Virus record (IMG/VR): IMGVR_UViG_3300045976_000096
Span: 32,001 to 96,000 of that record
Direction: 5' to 3' (one strand)
Source: a virus
DNA: 64,000 nt
Below, piece after piece: positions 31,783 to 56,392 of this stretch. The position numbers were made by a program, and so were the translations under genes. How positions within the stretch are numbered: position 1 is the stretch's first letter; each line of letters opens with the position of its first letter. Below the pieces are notes generated by a model. The model was not told the DNA's origin and did not search any database. It was given only the letters and a program-made list of their open reading frames with translations.

Positions 31783-32850
31783 ATGGCAGCGAAAAAGAAC
31801 AAAGCGACGGACGGCAACCTGAACGTGGCGAGCGACACCGTCGCGGGGCCGGAAGACGCGGTGCTGGCGGGGCTGCTCGAAGAACTGGAAGTGGCCGATC
31901 CGACCGTGCAGCCCGACGGCGCGAGCGGCGACGAAATCCTGGAAATCGAACCCGATGCCTCAGCGGTGGGTGTCGCCGACGAACTGATCGGCGAGGTGAG
32001 CGCGCAAGCCGCCGACACCGTGGTCGCCCTGAATGCCGAAGTCGACGCCGACGACACCGACACCCCGGTCGCCGACGTGGTCATCGGCCAGCCCGAAGCG
32101 TTCGCCGCAGCTGACGACGCCGGCATCGACTCCCTGCTCGACGACGTGGCGGGCGAACTGCACGCCGATGGCGCCGCCCAACCCGACGCCGACCCGCTCG
32201 ATTCCCTGCTCGAGGATGTCGCCAGCGACGCCGCGCGCATCGAAGCCAAGCAAAAGCTCTACGCGGAACAGGAAGCGCCCGCTGCCGCCGGCGAGGGCGA
32301 CACGCCGCAGGAGGCCGCACCGGGCAAGAAGGGCGGCAAGAAGAAGGACGCGGCGCCGAAAGAGCCGAAGGCACCCGCTCCGTCCAAGGTGACGCACAAG
32401 CGCGGCGACCTGCTGCTCGCCAAGCTGGGCGCGAAGGTCGGCGACTACCTCGTATTCGATGCCGATCCCGCCATCAACGACATGAAGCGCGACGCCTTCA
32501 TCGAGCGCATGAACGACAACAAGGCGATCGCCGACAAGGTGCGCGACAAGATCCTGATGCTCATGACGTGGATGGCCAACGGCCGCGCGCCGAGCGAACT
32601 GAACGAGGTTCTGCGCCGGGCGTTCACGGTCCTGCACGAACAGGGCGAACTCACCAGCGGAGATAAAGGCAATCTCCAGCTCAATCTTCTGGAGAAGCCG
32701 TACTCGATCGGGACTAGCCGGAGCCAGGCTTCGCAAATCTTCATGCTCTTGCCTGAACTCGACATGGTTGTAAAAACCAAAGGCAAGATGGTGCCGAATC
32801 CCAACAGTGTCATGCTCCAGGCGGTAAATCATCAGCTCGGACTGGTATAA
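31783..32850 (+). CDS. acidic N-terminus plus putative winged-helix C-terminal domain
   Basis: D/E/A-rich N-half, Lys-rich linker, YSIGT..SQASQ motif shared with ORF 44833. Confidence 0.65.
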   Translation: MAAKKNKATDGNLNVASDTVAGPEDAVLAGLLEELEVADPTVQPDGASGDEILEIEPDASAVGVADELIGEVSAQAADTVVALNAEVDADDTDTPVADVVIGQPEAFAAADDAGIDSLLDDVAGELHADGAAQPDADPLDSLLEDVASDAARIEAKQKLYAEQEAPAAAGEGDTPQEAAPGKKGGKKKDAAPKEPKAPAPSKVTHKRGDLLLAKLGAKVGDYLVFDADPAINDMKRDAFIERMNDNKAIADKVRDKILMLMTWMANGRAPSELNEVLRRAFTVLHEQGELTSGDKGNLQLNLLEKPYSIGTSRSQASQIFMLLPELDMVVKTKGKMVPNPNSVMLQAVNHQLGLV

Positions 32851-41584: not shown

Positions 41585-41600
41585 TGTTTCACGTGAAACA
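41585..41600. promoter_or_regulatory. parS: parS palindrome (chromosomal consensus)
   Basis: Perfect TGTTTCACGTGAAACA. Confidence 0.85.
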
Positions 41601-43858: not shown

Positions 43859-44095
43859 GCCAGCCGCATAGCCACATCAAGGGCGCCGACCGGGCGCCCT
43901 TTATATTGCGCCACCCAGTTGCCAAGGAAGCGCCTGTCACTGCGCTGCAGGAACACCATGCGAGCACGCCTTGGCAACGCCAGCCGCGGCGAAGGTATTC
44001 CGTGGACGTTCCGCTTTCAACGCCAGCTGCGGCGACGTCATATGCAGGATTTGTCGCGCCGCCCTCGCGCCTTGGCATGCCGGTCGCGACAGAGG

Positions 44096-44305
44096 ATGAT
44101 TCACATGCGAACCATTCACATGCTAATAGTTCGTAACCTAACCATTTGCGTGCTAATGATTCGCATACACATAGTTCGCATACGAACCATTCACATGCTA
44201 ATGATTCGTATGCTAATCGTTCACATGCTAATCGTTCGCGTGCTAATGATTCGTATGCTAATCGTTCGCATGTGAACAGTTGACGTATCAACAGTTGAAT
44301 ACGCA
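44096..44305. repeat. 15-bp tandem repeat array, about 14 units
   Basis: Units such as ATGATTCGTATGCTA, ACCATTCACATGCTA, ATCGTTCACATGCTA with an exact 15-bp period. Confidence 0.9.
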
Positions 44306-44653
44306 AGTAACCCGAATCGGGTTTAGCTCACCTGTGACTGACCTTGTCAATAGGTCATTGACCAATGCACAAACAAATTTCTTGCGCAAGCTGTGCATTT
44401 GTACAGTAAAAACCACTCTTGTATAAGACATGGTCAAACTGACAATTTTAACGCTTGTAAGTCATTGATTTTAAAGCGAACCCTCTAGGTTCAACGAACA
44501 GACAGGTCCCGGTATGGTTCTATCAACAAAGGGAAAAACCTCACCACGGGCTTAAAAAGGGCATTTGCGGGCATATATTTTTGCGTGATGTTTTTGTGCG
44601 TCTACATGACATCAGAATCTAATTTCACGCATAAAAAAAATCACGCAAAAGTA

Positions 44654-44682
44654 TTGACCTGGCAATTTTCGATCTGTATAGT
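44654..44682 (+). promoter_or_regulatory. sigma70-type promoter
   Basis: TTGACC-17bp-TATAGT with upstream A tracts. Confidence 0.75.
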
Positions 44683-44832
44683 TCTATTCATGCACTGACG
44701 AACACAACGATTCGCAGCGCTGCGCAAGCAAGTGGTTACATAACCCGCGCGCCCGGTACTGTGGTTCGCTCTCGCAGATACTGACCGGGCAAACAAAATA
44801 CTCTTTCACAACATTATATAAAGGTAACTATC

Positions 44833-45519
44833 ATGGGTAAGCAATTGAAAGCTGCAACTATCGTTAACAAACTGGGCGCAGCAGTCGCACAGCGCGTGCA
44901 AGCGCTGAAAGACAACGAGACGCACGTCGCGACCGAGTTTAAGGGCATCTTAGCGTGCTACGCGCCCGACGGTAACAATCGCGGTTCGTTCGAGCGTGCA
45001 ATCGAAAGCGTGAAAGATCAGATCGATTTTGACTTCTTAATCAAGATCATCGGTAAGCACGCAGAAACGGGCAAGAACGACCCGAACTATGTGCAAGCAA
45101 AAACGATTGTGAAAATCAATCGCTTGCTATTCGGTCTCGCAACGAAAGACATGCGCGCGCTCGACAACCATTCGCGCTCGTTGATCGTGAATGCAACGCT
45201 GAATGGTAAGCTCTCTAGCAAAGCAGCGTTCGCAACGCTGGTACGTGTTCAATGGGGGGAAGAGATCGAAGAAGCGCTGCGCGAGCGTAACAACTACAGC
45301 GCGGGTACGGGTTCGACGCAACTCTCTAGCACAAAAGAAATGATGCGCGTTTTGGGATTAAGCGACAACCCGAAGGGCACGAAAAACGCAGACTTCGCTT
45401 TCACCGACGAAGCTCGTACGCTACTGTGCGAACGGTTCGCGCGTCTCGCAGAACTGGTCAAGACCGCTGACAAGATCGATGCAGAGCTTGACGCAGCAAT
45501 CGAAGAAGCAGCAGAGTAA
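44833..45519 (+). CDS. putative DNA-binding protein, first gene of the motif-free island
   Basis: 228 aa; YSAGT.STQ.S motif shared with ORF 31783; terminator at about 45524-45551. Confidence 0.7.
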   Translation: MGKQLKAATIVNKLGAAVAQRVQALKDNETHVATEFKGILACYAPDGNNRGSFERAIESVKDQIDFDFLIKIIGKHAETGKNDPNYVQAKTIVKINRLLFGLATKDMRALDNHSRSLIVNATLNGKLSSKAAFATLVRVQWGEEIEEALRERNNYSAGTGSTQLSSTKEMMRVLGLSDNPKGTKNADFAFTDEARTLLCERFARLAELVKTADKIDAELDAAIEEAAE

Positions 45520-45547
45520 ATCACAAGGGCGCACTACGGTGCGCCCT

Positions 45548-45563
45548 TGTTTCACGTGAAACA
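45548..45563. promoter_or_regulatory. parS: parS palindrome (chromosomal consensus)
   Basis: Perfect TGTTTCACGTGAAACA. Confidence 0.85.
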
Positions 45564-45578
45564 CACAAGGGAAACATC

Positions 45579-46253
45579 ATGCACAAGATCGAAGAATACG
45601 ACGAGCAAAGCGACGAATTCACGGTGCGCGCACCTGACGGGACGCGTTATTTCGCTAACGCAGAAACACTCGCGCATATGCTGAATCATTACGACGAACC
45701 GAGCGCGTTTCTTGGTATGCAGTTCACTACAACCATTAAGGTGCAAGCATGAAAAGCGAATATCTGAAACAGCAGCGCGCGACGCGCAACGACGAGATCA
45801 CGCTGTGCGTCGTCGCGCTGCTGTGTGTCGTGCTGTGCATGGGCGTGCTGATTAACGCAGCAATTGAGAGTGAACAGCGCGCAGCGCAGCGCGCGAGCGA
45901 CGCACGGTTAGCGCGTACGGGTTCGCGCTTATGCTTGCAAGACGGTCGCACGATTGACCAAATGCGGTTTGACGAACCCGTACGCGCGATGTCTGCGCGT
46001 TGGTGCAAACGTTAAGGGGAAAGACATGACTGACTTAGAAAAAGCAATGCAAGAGTTCGCAGCGCGTAACGGTGTGACGCAATGCGCACCCGTCACGAGC
46101 GCGAAGCAAGCAAACGAGCTTGCGAAAGCGCGACGCGTCGAACAGCGCGAACGCGAACGTGCAGAACGCGCTGCGCGCTGCGCAGAACAGAACGCAGAGA
46201 ACGCGCGCTATGATCGCGAAGGTGTGTGGTACGTGGGCGGGTTCGCATCGTAG
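45579..46253 (+). CDS. three small ORFs (45579-45752; 45749-46015 with a TM helix; 46026-46253)
   Basis: AAGGGA/AAGGTG/AAGGGGA RBSs, ATGA overlap. Confidence 0.55.
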
Positions 46254-46473
46254 CACATACGCAACAGTAGCACGCACCGCTTGACACGGTGCGTGCGATA
46301 TGCGATGTCTTAGAAAAATTTTCAACCCGAGGAGGCCCTGCCTTCCTCGACTTCCGGTCTCCGAACACCCTTCCTTACAGAATCCTGGGCGGCCGCAAAA
46401 GCCAATCCTTATACATCCAAGATCCAAACATCCACGATCCAGGATTCCACATTTCCCCACTTATCCCCGCAAT

Positions 46474-48521
46474 TCACCAGTTATCCACAATCCCCTTGGG
46501 CCGATCCTTCGACGCCAGGCGCGAGCCATCGAAACGCCCGGCCGGCGCTGCCGCGCCTCGCCGGGGTACGTCCTGCGCGCGTGGAATGATTGCCGCCTGA
46601 ATGAACAGAGGCTGGACCTCCCATTCTGCTTTCGACTCGAATGACCGGTTGCCGCTTGGGACCAGCGCCAGGTAATTTTCCCACGACAGGTCGCGATCCT
46701 TCTGCAGGGCCAGGCACTTGCCGACCAGCTCCTTGATGATGCGCTTTTGCTCTAACGGCCAGACGCCATCCCACCTATGGGCAGGCATGTCGCCGTTCTC
46801 CTGCTCGCCCAGCTGACGCCGAAGGTACAGGTAGTCCTCGTAGTTCGGGAAGGACAGGATTTTCGCCAGGTCTCTCACCAGATCACCTCCACGACGGTTT
46901 GCGGCCTGTCCGAGCCGGCGGCGCCTTGCGTTCTCGGGGTGCGCCGCACTTCCTCGCGCAGCTCCTCCATCATGTCCATCCGTGCTTTCAGGGGCATGGC
47001 GCGCCAGACGGCCTCTGAAATCGGCTCGTACTTGAGCGCCAGCGACAGCTCCACGTAGCGCTGGTAGGTGTTCACCATACGACGTCCACCGGGGTTTGCG
47101 GTTGATCGCCCTTCGGTTGGGCGGTGGCGCGCGCACGGTCGCGCATGACGCGCTGCTGGTGCTGTAGAACGTTGATCGTGATCTTGCGCATGATGGGCTT
47201 CATGTCGGTCCAGGCGTTGGCATCGATGCAGACTTCGTTGTCGAAGTGCCCGGCCAGCCAGGTGCGCATGTAGTCGTCGTAGGAGATGTTCACCAGTGGT
47301 CTCCGCCAAAACGTTCCAGTTCCTTGTTGCGTCGGTCGACGGCAGCCTGCATCTGGGCCACCATGCTCTCCTGCGCCTTCTGATCACAGCCATTCCAGAC
47401 GTGCTCTGCAATAAGGCCGAAATCGTCGTCGAACCCGGCTTCCACGCGCAGTCGGCGGTAGCGCTGGTACAGGCTCATGCGTCACCCCGCTGCCAGGCGA
47501 TGAAGTCCTCGGTGCCGTCGGCAAAGCCGCGCTCCCAGGCCTCGACCAGCACGGGTGTAGTGTACGGACAGGCCGGCACTTCCGTGACCAGTTCGTAGCG
47601 CCCGGTGCGCCAGCCGGCATCGAGACCGTCGGCATAAGCGTCGGCGTCAGCGGTCCACTTCACCATACCACCTCCACCGTGGTCTTCGGCGTGTCGCCCT
47701 TGCCGGTAAGCCGGTCAATCTCGTCCTGCGACGCCTCGCGCCACTCGCCGGCGCGCACGCTGGTGTCGATCGTCACGGTGGTATAGGTGATGTGCGGCAC
47801 GGCACGCCCATCCCGGAACATCAGTCGCCCGGTATGGGTATCGTGACCCGGCTCGAAGTCGATGCAGATGGCGCGCAAGGTGTCGCGCCAGGTGCCGTGC
47901 GGACCCTGCACGAAGTAGCGTTTCATCACGTTCTTGCGCTGGCCACTGTCGTCGGCAGGCCTGCCGGCGCCGGCCACGCCGAGCCAGTCGATATTCGTCA
48001 CCATGCGTCCACCCCGTCGGTCTTGGGTTTGTCGCCTCTTGGTGTGCCGGGGTCGACCTGGGCCTGCTTGGCCAGCGCCACGATGACGTTGCGGCGTTCC
48101 TCCTCGGGAACCAGATCGTTCCAGATCTCGTACGTGGCGGGCCTGTCCGCGCGCTTGGCCAGCCGGCACAGGCGCAGGTAGTTGTCGTAGCTGGTGTCTA
48201 CCATGCTCCGCCCTCCACTTCGGTTTGCGGCACGTCGGGCAGACGCACGCGCGCGCCGGCCGCCATCTTCAGCTGGTACTCGCTCGGCTCGAAGTAGGCG
48301 TTTTCGTTGTTAGGCTCCTGCAGCACCTCGATCATGGTGCCGGATTCGACGTGGCTCATCACGTCCTTGAAGCTCCACGGGCAGTGTACGGCGACGCTGC
48401 CATCGTGCTTGATGCCGCGCCGCGTCGTGATCGCGCCTTCTCCTTCGCCGAAGTCGAACTCGATGTGGTGAATGCGGTCGTTGATCGGCTTGGCGCCTGG
48501 CAGCATGAACACGCGCTTCAT
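46474..48521 (-). CDS. array of eight coupled small ORFs (48198-48521, 47998-48204, 47660-48004, 47475-47666, 47290-47478, 47072-47293, 46875-47078, 46474-46878); seven end in Trp
   Basis: Stop/start overlaps throughout; shared YxxY...W domain in five and shared C-terminal tail. Confidence 0.7.
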
Positions 48522-48799
48522 GGCGTCACCAGCGCCTCGACCTGGGCCAGCGCCTCGGGCGGCAGCGTGCGCAGCTTGGCGGCAAGCTCGCGCGCGCGGG
48601 TGCGGGCATCCAGCTTGTGCTGGCGCCGGGCCGCGAAGATGTGGTCGACATTGTCCAGTCCGCCGATGATGTCGAGCATGACCTCGATCGCCTCGCCCTG
48701 CGTCAGCTTGTGGGTCTTGGCCAGCTGGTTCAGATGCTCGCGCGCTTCGGCGCTCAGGTCGATGGTGTAGCGCGGGCGCGCCGGGTTGGTGGTGCCCAT
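48518..48799 (-). CDS. ribbon-helix-helix-like regulator
   Basis: RYTIDLSAEAREHLNQLAKTHKLTQGEAIE; degenerate operator just upstream. Confidence 0.6.
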   Translation of the reverse strand: MGTTNPARPRYTIDLSAEAREHLNQLAKTHKLTQGEAIEVMLDIIGGLDNVDHIFAARRQHKLDARTRARELAAKLRTLPPEALAQVEALVTP

Positions 48800-48911
48800 G
48801 TTGTTTTCTCCCTATAAGGTTCAGTGACAACTGATTATAACGCACGCGCAAACTTATCACGCAAAAAAAGCGCCCCGAAGGGCGCTTGAAAGGCACTACA
48901 TGGGAAAGGAG

Positions 48912-49115
48912 TCAGGCGATGTCGGCGGTGAAACCGATCGGCTTCGAGTCGTCATCGTCGTCGCCGCCCTGCACCATGAAGCGGGGCAGCTCGGGGCCGT
49001 GCGCGTCCATCTGCAGAAAGGTCAGCGCCAAGAGCGCCAGCGGGTTCTGCAGCCAGACGACCACGGCCAGGATGGCCAGGACAATCATAACATTAACGGC
49101 CAGGGTGGATTTCAT
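48912..49115 (-). CDS. small membrane protein
   Basis: Hydrophobic N-terminal hairpin, acidic tail. Confidence 0.6.
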   Translation of the reverse strand: MKSTLAVNVMIVLAILAVVVWLQNPLALLALTFLQMDAHGPELPRFMVQGGDDDDDSKPIGFTADIA

Positions 49116-49178
49116 GATGGTCCTTGGATAAGTCAGCGGTGAACCAACGGTAACACGCCGGCGCCGGCTGCGCAACCC

Positions 49179-50918
49179 CTACGCGGCCGTCATCAAGACG
49201 GGAAAGCCCAGCGCCGCCAGGTCCACATCGCGCCCGTGCTCGTGGATGAAGCGGTCGAACCCGGCAGTCTCCTTGATGATGCTCTGGCGCTGCTTGGCGT
49301 GCAGTTTCAGATGGTCGTTAAAGTCGTCGGCGAAGTCGGTCACGAAACACAGGTTCGGCCCCTTCTTTTTCGCCCGCAGGCCGCGCCCGATGCGCTGCCT
49401 GAGCGCCACCTCGGCCTTGCCGCCGCCGGCCAGGCAGACATGGCCCACGGCCGGCACGTCCACGCCCACGTCGAGGATCGTGGTGCCGATCAGGACGTCG
49501 ATGTCGCCGGCGGCCAGGCGCGCAAGCGCGCGCTTCCGCTCGTCCTGGTCGTTCTCGCCGCGGATGAAGCACACGCGCAGGCCGGCCGCGCGCATGGCGG
49601 CTTCCAGCACGTCGCCATGCTTGGTCTGCTGGATCAGAACCATCGAGGTCAGGCCGTGGCGCGCGAACATGCTGCAGCGGTCCACGATGATGTCGTTGCG
49701 GTATTCGTTCTCGACGATGCCGATCCGGTACGCGCTCTGCCAGCCGGTGCCGCGAAACAGCTTGGCCGGCTTGTGGCGCAGCTGGATGAAGGTGAAGTGC
49801 GGCTGCGCCAGGATGCCGCGGTCGATCAGCATTTCCTCGCTGATCTTGATGGCGATCGGGCCGGAGCACGCCATCAGGCGCATGTTCGATTCCTGGTCGC
49901 CCTTCATGAACGGCGTGCCGGTCAGCGCCAGGCGGTAATAGGCGTTCTTGCAGTGTTTCAGGATCTGGTAGTAGCTCTCGCCCGACGCCTCGTGCGCTTC
50001 TTCGAGAATCACGAGACCGAAACGCTCCAGCAGGGCAATTACGCGCGCGCGCTCGCGCATATGTTCGTTCACCTTCACCGCGGCATCGGCGCGCAGGCTG
50101 GCCGCGATCTTCTTGCGCTCGATTTCCTGGTTTTGCTCGAATTCCTTGAGCAGGCGACGCTTTTCCGCCGGCGGCGTGCGCAATAAACCGAGCTTCGTCT
50201 CGTATTCCTTGTAGTCCTTGAGTTCTTTCTTGACGCGCGCGTCCATCATTTTTTCGAGTTCGCCCTCGACGGTCTTCTCCTCGACGCGCGCGGCGAGCGT
50301 CTGCACCATGCCGACGCAGATTTTGCGCACCGCGCGCCCGCCGCCCGCCGTCTCGTGCCCGAACTGGCCGTCGCCCAGCACGGAGCAGGCGGTGCCCATT
50401 TCCTCGAACGCGTCCTTCATCTGGTACATCAGGATGCCGCGCGTGGTCAGGAACAGGGTCGGCAGGTTGATCGAAGCGTAGGCCATGCGCGCGATGCGGC
50501 TCTTGCCGCCGCCAGTGGCCACGCGCGCGATGATCTGGCCGTGCTTGCGCAACTGCTTGACCACCTCCGGCTGGTAGTCGTAGCGCGGATCGTAGCCGAA
50601 CGAGTCGATGTCGGGACGCTCCGGCCCCTGCGGCTCGGGCAGGGGGCGCTTGACGTGGCGCACCTGATAGCCTTGCGCGCGCAGCTTGGCCGAGACGTAA
50701 TGCACGAAGCCGGCCGGGAAGGTGCCGGCGCGAAAGTCCAGGAACGAGCTGCGGCCATCCCAGTTGCCCTTCTTGAAGGACATGACGTGCTCGGCGCCGG
50801 CAACCGCGTACGAGAGAATCTCCTGGACCGCCAGCTTGACCACCCGGTCGGGGTCGTGCAACTTGGCGATGACGGCGTTACTGGCGATTGTGATTGTAAG
50901 GCTCATTGCGCTTGCCAT
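49179..50918 (-). CDS. superfamily 2 (UvsW/DEAH-like) helicase
   Basis: ATGGGKS, EEAH, LTGTP, LDVGVDVP, QRIGRGLR. Confidence 0.92.
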   Translation of the reverse strand: MASAMSLTITIASNAVIAKLHDPDRVVKLAVQEILSYAVAGAEHVMSFKKGNWDGRSSFLDFRAGTFPAGFVHYVSAKLRAQGYQVRHVKRPLPEPQGPERPDIDSFGYDPRYDYQPEVVKQLRKHGQIIARVATGGGKSRIARMAYASINLPTLFLTTRGILMYQMKDAFEEMGTACSVLGDGQFGHETAGGGRAVRKICVGMVQTLAARVEEKTVEGELEKMMDARVKKELKDYKEYETKLGLLRTPPAEKRRLLKEFEQNQEIERKKIAASLRADAAVKVNEHMRERARVIALLERFGLVILEEAHEASGESYYQILKHCKNAYYRLALTGTPFMKGDQESNMRLMACSGPIAIKISEEMLIDRGILAQPHFTFIQLRHKPAKLFRGTGWQSAYRIGIVENEYRNDIIVDRCSMFARHGLTSMVLIQQTKHGDVLEAAMRAAGLRVCFIRGENDQDERKRALARLAAGDIDVLIGTTILDVGVDVPAVGHVCLAGGGKAEVALRQRIGRGLRAKKKGPNLCFVTDFADDFNDHLKLHAKQRQSIIKETAGFDRFIHEHGRDVDLAALGFPVLMTAA

Positions 50919-50977: not shown

Positions 50978-51628
50978 ATGCCCACCACTCTCCTGCAGGA
51001 CATCGACCCCCGGCTGCTGCAGCCGAACCCCTGGAACACGAACGTCGTGTCGCCTGACAACGAAGCCAAGATCGACGCCTCGGTCAAGCGTCTCGGCATG
51101 TTCAAACCCATCATCGTGCGCACCCTCCCTGACGGCACCCTGCAAATTCTCGGCGGCGCGCACCGGCGCGATTCCGCGATCCGCCTGCACATGACCACCG
51201 TCCCGGTGATCAACCTCGGCATCATCGACGACAAGAAAGCCAAGGAAGTCGGTATCGTCGACAACGGCCGCTACGGCGAAGACGACACGCTGGGCCTGGC
51301 CGAATTGCTGGAATCGCTGGGTTCGCCCGGCGAGCTGGCCGAATTCATGCCGTTCACGAACGCGGATTTCGAGTCGATCTTCGCTTCAAGCAATATAGCA
51401 CTCGACGAGCTGGATTTGCCCGACGAATCCGGTTCGCCGGCACCGTCGCCTGCAACCAAGCCTGCCCAGACCCACGTCGTCATGCGCTTCAAGGTGCCAC
51501 TGGGCGACGACGGCATGATCGCCGACGCCATCGCGCAGGTGCAGAAGCAGCAGGGCTTCACCGACGAGGACGCGCTGTCCAACGCCGGCAACGCCCTGGT
51601 CCACATCTTCAAGAGGGCGGGGTACTGA
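50978..51628 (+). CDS. ParB/Srx N-terminal domain protein
   Basis: PNPWN.N, G..KPIIVR, GGAHR. Confidence 0.85.
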   Translation: MPTTLLQDIDPRLLQPNPWNTNVVSPDNEAKIDASVKRLGMFKPIIVRTLPDGTLQILGGAHRRDSAIRLHMTTVPVINLGIIDDKKAKEVGIVDNGRYGEDDTLGLAELLESLGSPGELAEFMPFTNADFESIFASSNIALDELDLPDESGSPAPSPATKPAQTHVVMRFKVPLGDDGMIADAIAQVQKQQGFTDEDALSNAGNALVHIFKRAGY

Positions 51629-52096: not shown

Positions 52097-52397
52097 TGAC
52101 GCCCGCTGACGTATTCGTCTGGACCTGCACGATCACGACATGCTGCCTGGTTGTCGGGGCCGGCGTGGGCCTGCTGGCGCTTGGCTTTAACGCGCTCGAA
52201 AAGGAGATTTTCAAATGATCGCCTGGTGGATTCTACCGCTGGCCATCAGCGTGTCCTGCCTGCTTACGATCGCCTGGTGGTGTGACGAGAACATGCCCTA
52301 CCGCAGCCTGATGGCGGCCGTCGCAGTATTCCTCGCCATCGTGCCGAACGCCATCGTCTGGGTGTTTGCCTTCCTGATTTCCCGAATGATGCCATGA
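52096..52397 (+). CDS. two tiny membrane ORFs (52096-52218, 52215-52397)
   Basis: Hydrophobic, coupled. Confidence 0.45.
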
Positions 52398-53041
52398 CCG
52401 ACCACAACATCCAGATGTGGGACACCTCCCGTCCCAAACCCTACGCGCTGAACGCCAAGATTCACGACGACGCGCAGGTGACGAAGATCGCCGCCTCGAT
52501 CCAGAAGTTCGGTTGGCGCGGCAATCCCATCGTCGTCGACGAGAACGAGGTGATCCTGGCCGGCCACGGCCGCCGCCTGGCCGCCCTGAAGCTGGGCCTG
52601 AAGCAGGTGCCGGTGGTCCAGATGAAGGACATGACCGAGGACGAGAAGCGCGCGTATCGTCTGGCCGACAACCGCGTCGCCATCTCGAACCTGGACGCCG
52701 ACATCCTGGCTCAGGAAATCGAGGGCCTGGACTTCGACCTGAACGAGTTCTTCGACGCCAAGGAAATCAGCTTCGTCACCGCCGACCTCGGCACCCTGAA
52801 CGAAAGCGCCTTCGTGGCCGACCTGGACGCGGAAATCGACGCCCAGAGCGCCGAGACGACGGCAACGATCGCCGCGGCCGCCGACAAGCCGGTGCCGGTC
52901 GCCAAGGCGCTCGGCTTCAAGACCATCAAGGGGGCCGACGAACGGGCCGTGGCGCGCTTCATGGCCACGATCGAGGCCGACACCGGCAAGACCGGCGTCG
53001 ACGCCTTCATGGCCTTCGTACGTAGCGTGGTGGGCAAATGA
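52394..53041 (+). CDS. ParB/Srx N-terminal domain protein
   Basis: PY..NAK.H, PIVVD, AGHGR, ADNR. Confidence 0.88.
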   Translation: MTDHNIQMWDTSRPKPYALNAKIHDDAQVTKIAASIQKFGWRGNPIVVDENEVILAGHGRRLAALKLGLKQVPVVQMKDMTEDEKRAYRLADNRVAISNLDADILAQEIEGLDFDLNEFFDAKEISFVTADLGTLNESAFVADLDAEIDAQSAETTATIAAAADKPVPVAKALGFKTIKGADERAVARFMATIEADTGKTGVDAFMAFVRSVVGK

Positions 53042-55414: not shown

Positions 55415-56392
55415 ATGACGACCATCATCGACAACGCGGACGTGCGCATCGTGCGCCGCGCCATGCCTGCCAACCACACGCTGTCGCTTCTGGACCGCAT
55501 CTACGTCGAGCGCGGCACCAAGGCGGACTGGGATCTGCTGCACGAGCTGCACTACAAGGCCGAGCGTCTCGGGATCGGCCCGAAAATCTACCGCTGCGTG
55601 CTCGATGGCCAGGTGATCGGCGTGGGTGTGATGACGGTGCCGAAAATGCTGCTTTCGGGCCGCAACGAGGCCATGCCGCACATGCGTCCCAACGTGGACG
55701 GGCGCGACACGCGCCTGATCAACCGCACACGCGCGCTGTGGCTCAACGCGCACGCCTGCACCAACAGCCGCCTGGTGCTGGACACGATGTACCGCGGCGC
55801 CGGCATCGCGTACCGCATGCAGAACCTCATGATGCGCATGACCGGCTGCCGCTACGTCGAATTCCAGTCGTCGATGAGCAAATTCAACCCGTTCGCGGCG
55901 AAGGCCGGCATGCGCTTCACGAAACCCAAGCGCAGCTCCAACTACGAGAAGGGCCTGGCCTTTTTCCAGCGCTGGTTCGAGAGCGTGCCGATGGATTATG
56001 TCGGCATCAAGGCGGAAATCGACGCCATGCCGCCGGCGGTACAGACAAAGTGCATCGCCGAGATGCGCAAGTTCTACTACACCTGCTCGTCGATGGAGAA
56101 ATCCGGCGACAACCGCGCCAATGGCACCACGCGCGTCGACGCGATGGCGGTCGGCTACCTCTTGAAAAGCCTGCAGCAGCTCGTGCTGGCCAGTCCGCTG
56201 TACGGGATTTTCGAGAACCCCGATTTCTGCCACCCGCTGCCAGCGCGCCTGCCGCTGGTCGCGTTCGACAATCAATCCCTCGGGTCGCCACTCGATTTGG
56301 AAGCCGCCTACGTGCAAATGGGCCGCATTCCGGTCGTCGACGACCTGACCAACCCGGAAGACGAAGATGCACCTGACAGCCAAGCAGATTGA
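55415..56392 (+). CDS. GNAT-fold (Mom-like) acyltransferase
   Basis: LHY, SRLVLDTMYRGAGIA acyl-CoA motif, MSKFNPF..KAGM. Confidence 0.7.
   Translation: MTTIIDNADVRIVRRAMPANHTLSLLDRIYVERGTKADWDLLHELHYKAERLGIGPKIYRCVLDGQVIGVGVMTVPKMLLSGRNEAMPHMRPNVDGRDTRLINRTRALWLNAHACTNSRLVLDTMYRGAGIAYRMQNLMMRMTGCRYVEFQSSMSKFNPFAAKAGMRFTKPKRSSNYEKGLAFFQRWFESVPMDYVGIKAEIDAMPPAVQTKCIAEMRKFYYTCSSMEKSGDNRANGTTRVDAMAVGYLLKSLQQLVLASPLYGIFENPDFCHPLPARLPLVAFDNQSLGSPLDLEAAYVQMGRIPVVDDLTNPEDEDAPDSQAD

Follow-up and report, generated by a model that had tools for sequence, protein, structure and literature searches.

A transcription unit purged of a short GG-type DNA word in a group of siphophages and phage-plasmids

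The chlorovirus nickase and methylase pair Nt.CviPII/M.CviPII acts at the three-letter word CCD. The first-step-transfer DNA of T5 and BF23 and the leading region of the Autographiviridae are small early blocks whose freedom from certain DNA words decides how infection turns out, and sites elsewhere in these genomes do not matter (PMC10644984, PMC12455610). The T5 block has repeats and DnaA boxes at its inner border (PMC10644984); A1-dependent DNA destruction proceeds from the first-step DNA, and the escape of the phage's own DNA is unsolved (bioRxiv 10.64898/2026.04.02.716235). Motif-specific base modification is found in phage CAjan, with dPreQ0 at GA and GGC as cited in PMC11780129. Here we describe an island in a 64,000-nucleotide window (positions 32,001 to 96,000 of the 112,422-bp IMG/VR virus record IMGVR_UViG_3300045976_000096) that is free on both strands of the IUPAC word HGGM and its complement KCCD, extends from 44094 to 46329 and contains a single exception at 44660. 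Positions are those of the window unless a genome is named. A first-pass annotation made from the letters alone had noticed this purge and proposed that the island must stay free of a base modification, binding protein or nuclease targeting KCCD.

The motif-free island and its conserved gene

The purge is real and extreme. Between 44097 and 46328, KCCD does not occur and HGGM occurs once (TGGC at 44660), compared to 38.4 and 43.5 occurrences per kb, respectively, in the rest of the window; the whole genome contains 8985 HGGM/KCCD sites, or 79.9 per kb. Its longest stretches without a site measure 1670 and 567 bp and meet at 44660; the next in length has 139 bp. When every IUPAC 4-mer was ranked by its longest occurrence-free gap, HGGM at the island came out on top with a statistic of 124, the background maxima being 38 in phage ANB28 and 17 in T5. 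The same motif and location also come first when all IUPAC words of 2-4 letters are considered. The island is sharply delimited by AGGA on either side, at 44093 (left) and 46330 (right). Synonymous resampling of the four open reading frames (ORFs) gave 91 ± 6 expected sites with the codon usage of the genome and 45 ± 5 (minimum 27 of 2000) with that of the island itself, whereas none is observed. The non-coding segment 44097-44832 (736 bp) contains one site versus 20 ± 4 under a first-order Markov model, and the 560 bp upstream of the promoter are purged as well. Every GGC, GGA, GCC or TCC in the island sits within a run of at least three G or C. The GC content is 0.50 in the island versus 0.63 outside, but GCGC and CGCG are as frequent as outside, so low GC is not the explanation of the purge. 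The first-pass description thus holds in all these respects, namely the two-strand depletion across non-coding DNA and four ORFs, the sole exception, the confinement of the remaining words to G or C runs, the sharp borders and the insufficiency of low GC, and the depletion survives the codon-preserving shuffle that it had proposed as a check.

The conserved gene of the island is ORF1 (44833..45519, plus strand, 228 amino acids), which matches phrog_9272/4202 (function not assigned) and no Pfam family. It is preceded by a sigma-70-like promoter, TTGACC-17-TATAGT (44654..44682, plus strand), which matches the consensus at 10 of 12 positions, in agreement with the promoter call of the first-pass annotation. 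Counts of sigma-70-like promoters do not set the island apart. The spacer of this promoter contains the island's single HGGM (TGGC, 44660-44663), and by eye a single motif between -35 and -10 is also kept in two of the relatives described below (G002 and G003) and not in a third (G001).

Conservation, gradation and decay of the island in relatives

Based on TerL and helicase comparison, the virus was placed with SSU5-type phage-plasmids, Nickievirus, Rhizobium phage RHEph10 and Stenotrophomonas phage ANB28. The comparison set included 20 genomes, all analysed whole: this genome, 15 near-complete IMG/VR relatives collected via TerL, ANB28, nickie, RHEph10 and SSU5. The gap scan was run blind on each relative. 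Of the 20 genomes, 15 showed exactly one outstanding gap each, and SSU5 showed a weaker one; the gap always lay over the ORF1 ortholog and its promoter; decayed islands were identified in G007 and G014, while G011 and ANB28 possess neither ORF1 nor an island. The orthologous islands that the first-pass annotation had suggested looking for are therefore present, with a banned motif that varies. Among the cultured phages, the ORF1 orthologs are nickie gp019, RHEph10 gp097 and SSU5_120, each annotated as hypothetical. The orthologs are 27-70% identical, 180-280 amino acids long and all-helical, and have in common the segment (G/S)T(G/A)STQxSST(K/R), which is reduced to TQ in the most distant members. 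A tblastn search of ORF1 against a phage collection and a search of IMG/VR with back-translated ORF1 patterns yielded no match; 17 metagenomic homologs were found at the protein level.

The banned set is graded among these genomes. It comprises only HGGC (plus GGA on the sense strand) in G015, HGGM in this genome and four relatives (G001, G002, G003 and G009), GGS in G008, GGV in G010, every GGC/GCC and most GGG in G004, G005, G006 and RHEph10, and every GG and CC in G012, G013 and nickie, the latter with an island of 1137 bp and a gap statistic of 140. HGGC/GCCD is banned in every island and represents the common core, whereas GGT/ACC is the last word to be lost. In the islands free of all GG and CC, the ORF1 protein contains no glycine, proline or tryptophan, which argues that the constraint on the DNA overrides protein composition.

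In G007, ORF1 is interrupted by two stop codons and the motif is returning, with 1-7 occurrences per 250 bp versus a genome mean of 15.8, suggesting that the purge is held by selection tied to the gene and not by mutation bias. This bears on the simplest alternative, a recent import from a biased donor or local hypermutation by a deaminase. Such an origin would account for an island GC that lies 10-25 points below that of the genome, but it is excluded by the comparative data: orthologous islands occur across the family at 27-70% protein identity, the ORFs are intact, synonymous sites are under selection and the motif returns where the gene is broken.

The second decayed island, in G014 (93360-94120), contains an ORF1 homolog 74% identical to that of G012, and its sense strand has 2 GG versus 31 CC. 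This pattern is a one-strand remnant of the ban that concerns sense-strand GG only. Sense-strand bias is what would be expected if the message were the target, that is, if an endoribonuclease or RNA-modifying toxin acted at GG-type words and the ORF1 message were written without them. Enzymes of this kind include T4 RegB, which acts at GGAG, and CmdT, which acts at GA. The stricter sense strand of G014 and G015 agrees with this explanation, as do ribosome-binding sites that avoid GGAG, such as the GAGAGA-like sequences seen by eye in G012 and G013. However, the antisense strand and the DNA upstream of the promoter are purged equally in 13 of the 15 clear islands (the exceptions are G015 and, partly, G004), including the 560 bp here, and the co-variation with duplex palindromes outside the unit, described in the next section, has no explanation at the RNA level. 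We therefore regard immunity of the message as quite improbable.

CCWWGG palindromes and candidate readers of the purged word

Directly upstream of the island, between 41567 and 44075, we identified 18 CCWWGG palindromes (mostly KCCWWGGM), nearly all of them intergenic and located ahead of small plus-strand genes. Four pairs stand in tandem 10 bp apart. No other window of the genome is as dense (18 sites in 3 kb, 3.0 expected, P 4e-9). Of 38 half-sites in this genome's palindromes, 36 have C or A as the base 3' of GG. The first-pass annotation had described a promoter class of the form KCC-N8-KCC-N13 followed by a -10 element; the KCC-N8-KCC part corresponds to the tandem palindromes, while convincing -10 hexamers were not seen by eye. 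Among the 15 genomes with clear islands, CCWWGG is 4-12-fold enriched within 3 kb on the promoter side of the island in 11 (P 4e-4 to 7e-15). The island-upstream window is also the densest of the genome in 11 of the clear-island genomes, and in G013 the densest window lies within a few kb. No significant cluster was found in G011, G014, G007 or SSU5; the densest window of ANB28 contains 12 sites versus 3.3 expected (P about 6e-3) and is far from the conserved border element described below.

The base flanking the palindromes changes together with the banned set. In the HGGM genomes it is C or A and never or almost never G, and HGGG is tolerated in their islands. In G004, G005 and G008 it is C or G, and GGG is banned; G008 has few A flanks and tolerates GGA. 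Broad flanks were found in G010 and nickie. Across 52 genome-by-base cells, the share of a base among palindrome flanks and the observed/expected ratio of HGGN in the island show a Spearman correlation of -0.74 (p 2e-10), or -0.72 without C; the cells lack phylogenetic independence, but the pattern is seen repeatedly, in separate lineages. This co-variation indicates that the purged word is the half-site of a factor that recognises the palindrome and whose specificity drifts by phage lineage. Both the clustering of the palindromes beside the islands of these genomes and its co-variation with the banned set are new here. The first-pass annotation had proposed to check whether the motif co-varies with the GNAT or the 44833 (ORF1) allele; it tracks the CCWWGG palindromes, and not visibly the recognition helix of ORF1.

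The same observation counts against avoidance of host defences, be they restriction sites, GG/CC protospacer-adjacent motifs of CRISPR or phosphorothioate-type systems. T5-like and T7-like phages are restricted only via sites in their first-entering DNA (PMC10644984, PMC12455610), and a stretch without GG and CC is untargetable via an NGG or CC motif. On the other hand, the hosts of this group belong to the alpha-, beta- and gamma-proteobacteria and yet the core word is identical, a genome that can be targeted at other places is not saved by shielding 1-2 kb, and the banned set follows palindromes borne by the phage. In addition, a degenerate word of 3-4 nucleotides is not, to our knowledge, a restriction specificity. 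Taken together, these points make host defence a very improbable cause.

We further searched for the factor that might read the word. The ORF1 protein is modelled as all-helical (AF2 pLDDT 88), with the GTGSTQxSST segment invariant and a C-terminal half that appears winged-helix-like; residues 96-226 align with the winged helices of MarR, ORC and H1 at VIA-align Z 6-8, which is within the noise range of the tool. A Foldseek search of ORF1 against PDB gave nothing at E <= 0.001. Only one structural relative, an uncharacterised protein of a virus, reached significance (E 4e-7), and a search of the ESM Atlas retrieved only large clusters of hypothetical proteins. Among the proteins of this genome compared by tblastn across the 20 genomes, a single one besides ORF1 matches the distribution of the island, namely g31 (genome 26561-27217, outside the window). 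It has a Cys-rich (Cys4) N-terminus and a helix-helix-helix-hairpin C-terminal domain, whose nearest fold neighbours are, non-significantly, winged-helix regulators. Profile searches of ORF1 and g31 against PDB sequences gave no match. Before g31 lies g30, a weak sigma-70-region-2-like gene; the two genes together occupy genome 25806-27217 (L185:5806-7214).

Enzymes that could mark the word were looked for as well. The profiles of TGT/DpdA (PF01702), N6/N4 (PF01555), C5 (PF00145) and D12 (PF02086) methylases and thymidylate-synthase-like proteins (PF00303) are all absent from the 112-kb genome, with positive controls, no base-modifying enzyme was found among about 60 proteins scanned against PHROGs or Pfam, and phyletic profiling for a writer enzyme returned only g31, a predicted DNA binder. 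The marking of the remaining genome envisaged by the first-pass annotation is thus not supported. The GNAT that it had named, a 325-amino-acid protein at 55415-56392, was not confirmed as such and has no Pfam match; it matches phrog_886, ABC transporter ATP-binding subunit (8e-131), and is conserved even in relatives without an island.

These searches bear most directly on the possibility of a modification-free cassette. On this explanation, an enzyme of an unknown family would mark G or C in HGG plus flank genome-wide, ORF1 would be read from the incoming marked DNA by unadapted host RNA polymerase, and the CCWWGG palindromes would be doubly marked switches of early promoters. The total exclusion of single sites, which holds for both strands from the promoter as far as the hairpin, fits a covalent mark better than a binder; the co-variation of palindromes and purge would be equally expected if the specificity of the writer set both, and the dPreQ0 of CAjan at GA and GGC provides a precedent for a motif-specific mark. 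Against it stand the missing writer genes of known families, and the conserved cluster of two ParB-like proteins and an ABC-type ATPase is also present in the island-less ANB28 and G011. We consider this explanation unlikely.

The data call for a reader that acts at the DNA level and is encoded by the phage lineage or tuned by it, together with a cassette that has to remain invisible to this reader. That the island is kept free of something recognising KCCD-like words follows from the two-strand purge, its coverage of promoter, genes and spacers, its presence in relatives at 27-70% identity and its decay in G007. This part of the first-pass proposal stands, whereas the suggestion of first-injected DNA finds no support; the first-step DNA of T5 has no comparable purge.

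As for the nature of the reader, a DNA-binding regulator or coating protein is the explanation that we favour, with a probability of roughly 0.45. The island would be a self-contained transcription unit, made up of ORF1 with its sigma-70-like promoter and, in this genome, of three additional small ORFs, and selection would keep it free on both strands of the (H)GG-plus-flank half-site of a DNA-recognising factor specific to the phage lineage. The full sites of this factor would be the CCWWGG palindromes that cluster immediately upstream, where promoters are frequent, and a unit without any site would be blind to it. ORF1, a predicted winged-helix-like DNA binder, could then be made while binding, silencing, marking or attack affects all other parts of the genome, which carry about 80 half-sites per kb. 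The factor might be ORF1 itself or g31, the zinc-finger/winged-helix-like protein that shares the island's distribution, and ORF1 would act as an exempt pioneer or master gene. What favours a binder is the operator-like appearance of the palindromes, the presence of two DNA-binder-like proteins with the same distribution as the island, and the failure to find a writer enzyme. The purge itself, its conservation, its differences among lineages, its decay where the gene is lost and its co-variation with the palindromes are observed; that the reader is a phage-encoded protein, that binding rather than chemistry is what does the harm, and the time at which the unit is expressed are inferred.

Several observations weigh against a binder. 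Half-sites of a dimeric regulator are normally bound weakly, so that ordinary operator logic would not call for a total ban on single half-sites; such a ban suggests that one site suffices for harm, which would be the case for cleavage, a covalent mark or a hard roadblock. Approximately 150 other genes are full of the purged word, though they too need to be expressed. G001, G003 and G012 have weak palindrome clusters or none, and the correlation of flanks with banned words carries the phylogenetic caveat given above. In G014 and G015 the ban is stricter on the sense strand, which a symmetric duplex binder does not predict. Finally, the weak fold matches of ORF1 and g31 to winged-helix proteins lie within noise (Z 6-8; Foldseek E above 0.1), and no co-variation with the banned set is visible in the recognition-helix region of ORF1.

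Borders, accessory features and comparison with known systems

Downstream of ORF1, the cassette contains a hairpin with a 12-bp stem (45523..45550) followed by three small plus-strand ORFs without family matches: ORF2 (45579..45752, 57 amino acids), which has a similar 57-amino-acid counterpart after ORF1 in G003, ORF3 (45749..46015, 88 amino acids), which has a hydrophobic segment, and ORF4 (46026..46253, 75 amino acids). A second hairpin, read from the sequence and with a 10-bp stem, is found at the end of the cassette (46270..46296). At the opposite end, tandem repeats occupy 44099..44272 (a 15-bp unit in 11.6 copies, or a 45-bp super-unit in 3.4 copies); they were found only in the island of this genome and have no counterpart in the islands of G001-G003.

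A conserved border element, GATGTCTTAGAA (46304..46315, plus strand), lies just beyond the second hairpin. The family consensus is GAAGTCYTAGA, often placed in the loop of a short hairpin. A pattern search identified one copy in 16 of the 20 genomes, and a relaxed pattern, searched beside the island only, added G007, G008 and G015, for a total of 19 of 20 genomes; the element was not found in SSU5. It marks the far border of the island where there is one and is also present in the island-less G011 and ANB28. TerL lies 10-12 kb downstream of the element in the genomes where it was located (G000, that is, this genome, G011, G012 and ANB28). The element may serve as an origin or a packaging site, or mark an end. 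Two fragmentary IMG/VR contigs (L031:1-70 and L052:1-70) start 34 and 58 nucleotides before it, with about 0.04 expected by chance, and these starts reflect a physical end or else a break of the assembly in a variable region. The contig ends are 127-bp assembly overlaps or arbitrary.

The possibility of a physical end is of interest for another explanation, in which the island would be nuclease-proof, first-acting DNA in the manner of T5. A frequently cutting (K)CC(D)-type nickase or nuclease, either the phage's own destroyer of host DNA or one delivered with the virion, would operate early in infection; the cassette, perhaps the first DNA to enter, would be without sites, and the rest would arrive or become protected later. 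The chlorovirus nickase Nt.CviPII recognises just such a word, CCD. Since one cut suffices for harm, a total ban fits a nuclease better than a binder, and G014 and G015, where GG is banned more strictly on the sense strand (CC on the template strand), fit a nickase of the CC strand that blocks RNA polymerase. Long direct terminal repeats have been reported for a nickievirus, Nican01, classed as 'DTR (long)' by PhageTerm (PMC11256456), T5 destroys host DNA from its first-step DNA with its self-escape unsolved, and the two contigs start close to the border element. On the other side, the contig starts may be assembly breaks at a variable region, and the first-step DNA of T5 shows no purge of a short motif (in bases 1-64000, which include it, the best gap statistic is 17, the background level). 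Furthermore, no candidate nuclease has the distribution of the island, and the tandem intergenic palindromes look like operators and not like cleavage sites. We regard a nuclease as clearly unlikely.

Beyond the island, a motif-dense non-coding block (46330..46500) contains GGCCCTGCCTTCCTC, followed by YCCTTAYA boxes (two or three), GCCGGC and, at 46481-46489, a DnaA-box-like sequence, TTATCCACA. This block, located between the island and a convergent helicase operon, is conserved in G001-G006, G009 and G011; its conserved part consists of GCCTTCCTC, the two or three YCCTTAYA boxes and GCCGGC. When the island and its border were scanned with Rfam and for tRNAs, only sub-threshold noise appeared. 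The convergent operon (46474..50918, minus strand) encodes small proteins and ends in a UvsW/DEAD-type helicase (49179-50918), with synteny in SSU5. The small minus-strand proteins beside the island (46474-48896) have tails ending in W, e.g., DRPKGIVDNW, and no family matches.

Two perfect chromosomal-type parS sites (TGTTTCACGTGAAACA) were identified, one outside the island (41585..41600) and one inside (45548..45563). Sites of this kind are present within the islands of four genomes, this one, G003, G004 (two copies) and G005, and almost nowhere else in them; in the latter three they occur in the island only. The parS sequence itself contains no GG or CC. Two ParB_N-like proteins are encoded nearby, at 50978-51628 (above the Pfam cut-off) and 52394-53041 (below the cut-off, phrog_930 at 1e-73), in the conserved cluster with the ABC-type ATPase. 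Consensus parS sites together with ParB-type proteins indicate a putative parABS partition system, which would be an accessory feature of the locus, with parS in only four islands. An iteron plasmid replicon was also considered and rejected: ORF1 has no Rep or other Pfam match, and the 15-bp repeats are found only in this genome. It is further disfavoured because the island is strongest in nickie-type phages; in the nickievirus psageB1, no temperate behaviour was seen (PMC8537276).

Nearly all genes of the genome are on the plus strand. The replication and recombination genes include those for a DnaB-like helicase, DnaG-like primase, PolIII-alpha-like polymerase, SSB, UvsX-like recombinase, SbcCD, RuvC and ribonucleotide reductase; PhoH, CobT/CobS-like proteins, the two ParB_N-like proteins, the ABC-type ATPase, thioredoxin, TerS/TerL and siphovirus structural proteins are encoded as well. 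Three GIY-YIG-type homing endonuclease genes are scattered in the genome (26377-27201, 32953-33831 and 54024-54581), two of them recognised by PHROG matches only.

On a wider scale, we consider it an even bet that this supergroup of approximately 110-kb siphophages and phage-plasmids (SSU5, nickie and RHEph10 types) possesses an undescribed control layer, in which a phage factor reads a GG-type word of 2-4 nucleotides, present about every 12 bp in phage and host DNA, and ORF1 alone has been recoded to invisibility, even losing glycine, proline and tryptophan. If real, this would be a DNA reader of 2-4-nucleotide specificity acting genome-wide in a widespread phage group, which includes SSU5-type enterobacterial phage-plasmids and biocontrol phages of Pseudomonas syringae, and a self-targeting problem solved by recoding one gene. 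The loss of the three amino acids offers a rare, clean case of nucleotide-level constraint setting protein composition. A motif-free island with neighbouring palindromes would also provide a computational handle on the pioneer gene and the specificity of its reader in any genome. The cultured carriers of nickie gp019, RHEph10 gp097 and SSU5_120 make the hypothesis directly testable, in parallel to the open question of how T5 spares its own first-acting DNA.

Among the known systems, the first-step-transfer DNA of T5 and BF23 and the leading region of the Autographiviridae resemble the island as small early blocks defined by freedom from DNA words, and the repeats and DnaA boxes at the inner border of the T5 block resemble its border features. 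These phages, however, avoid single host restriction sites of 5-13 bp, whereas the island lacks a word of 2-4 nucleotides expected about 180 times. A study of nicked Pseudomonas phages (PMC11780129) was set aside as a parallel, since it deals with a different phage family and a different motif. With lambda Cro/CI and with T4 MotA and its MotA boxes, the locus shares clustered short palindromes in promoter regions beside a gene for a small DNA-binding-like protein, and an early protein that would reprogram later promoters. ORF1 has no sequence match and no significant fold match to proteins of these types, and we know of no regulator gene cleared of all half-sites of its own or its partner's operator. 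The words read by DpdA-type 7-deazaguanine modification (GA and GGC in CAjan) and by Nt.CviPII/M.CviPII (CCD) are short, degenerate and of the same flavour as the purged word, that is, GGC, or CC followed by a base other than C; those systems differ in their enzymes, as this genome encodes neither TGT/DpdA nor a methylase.

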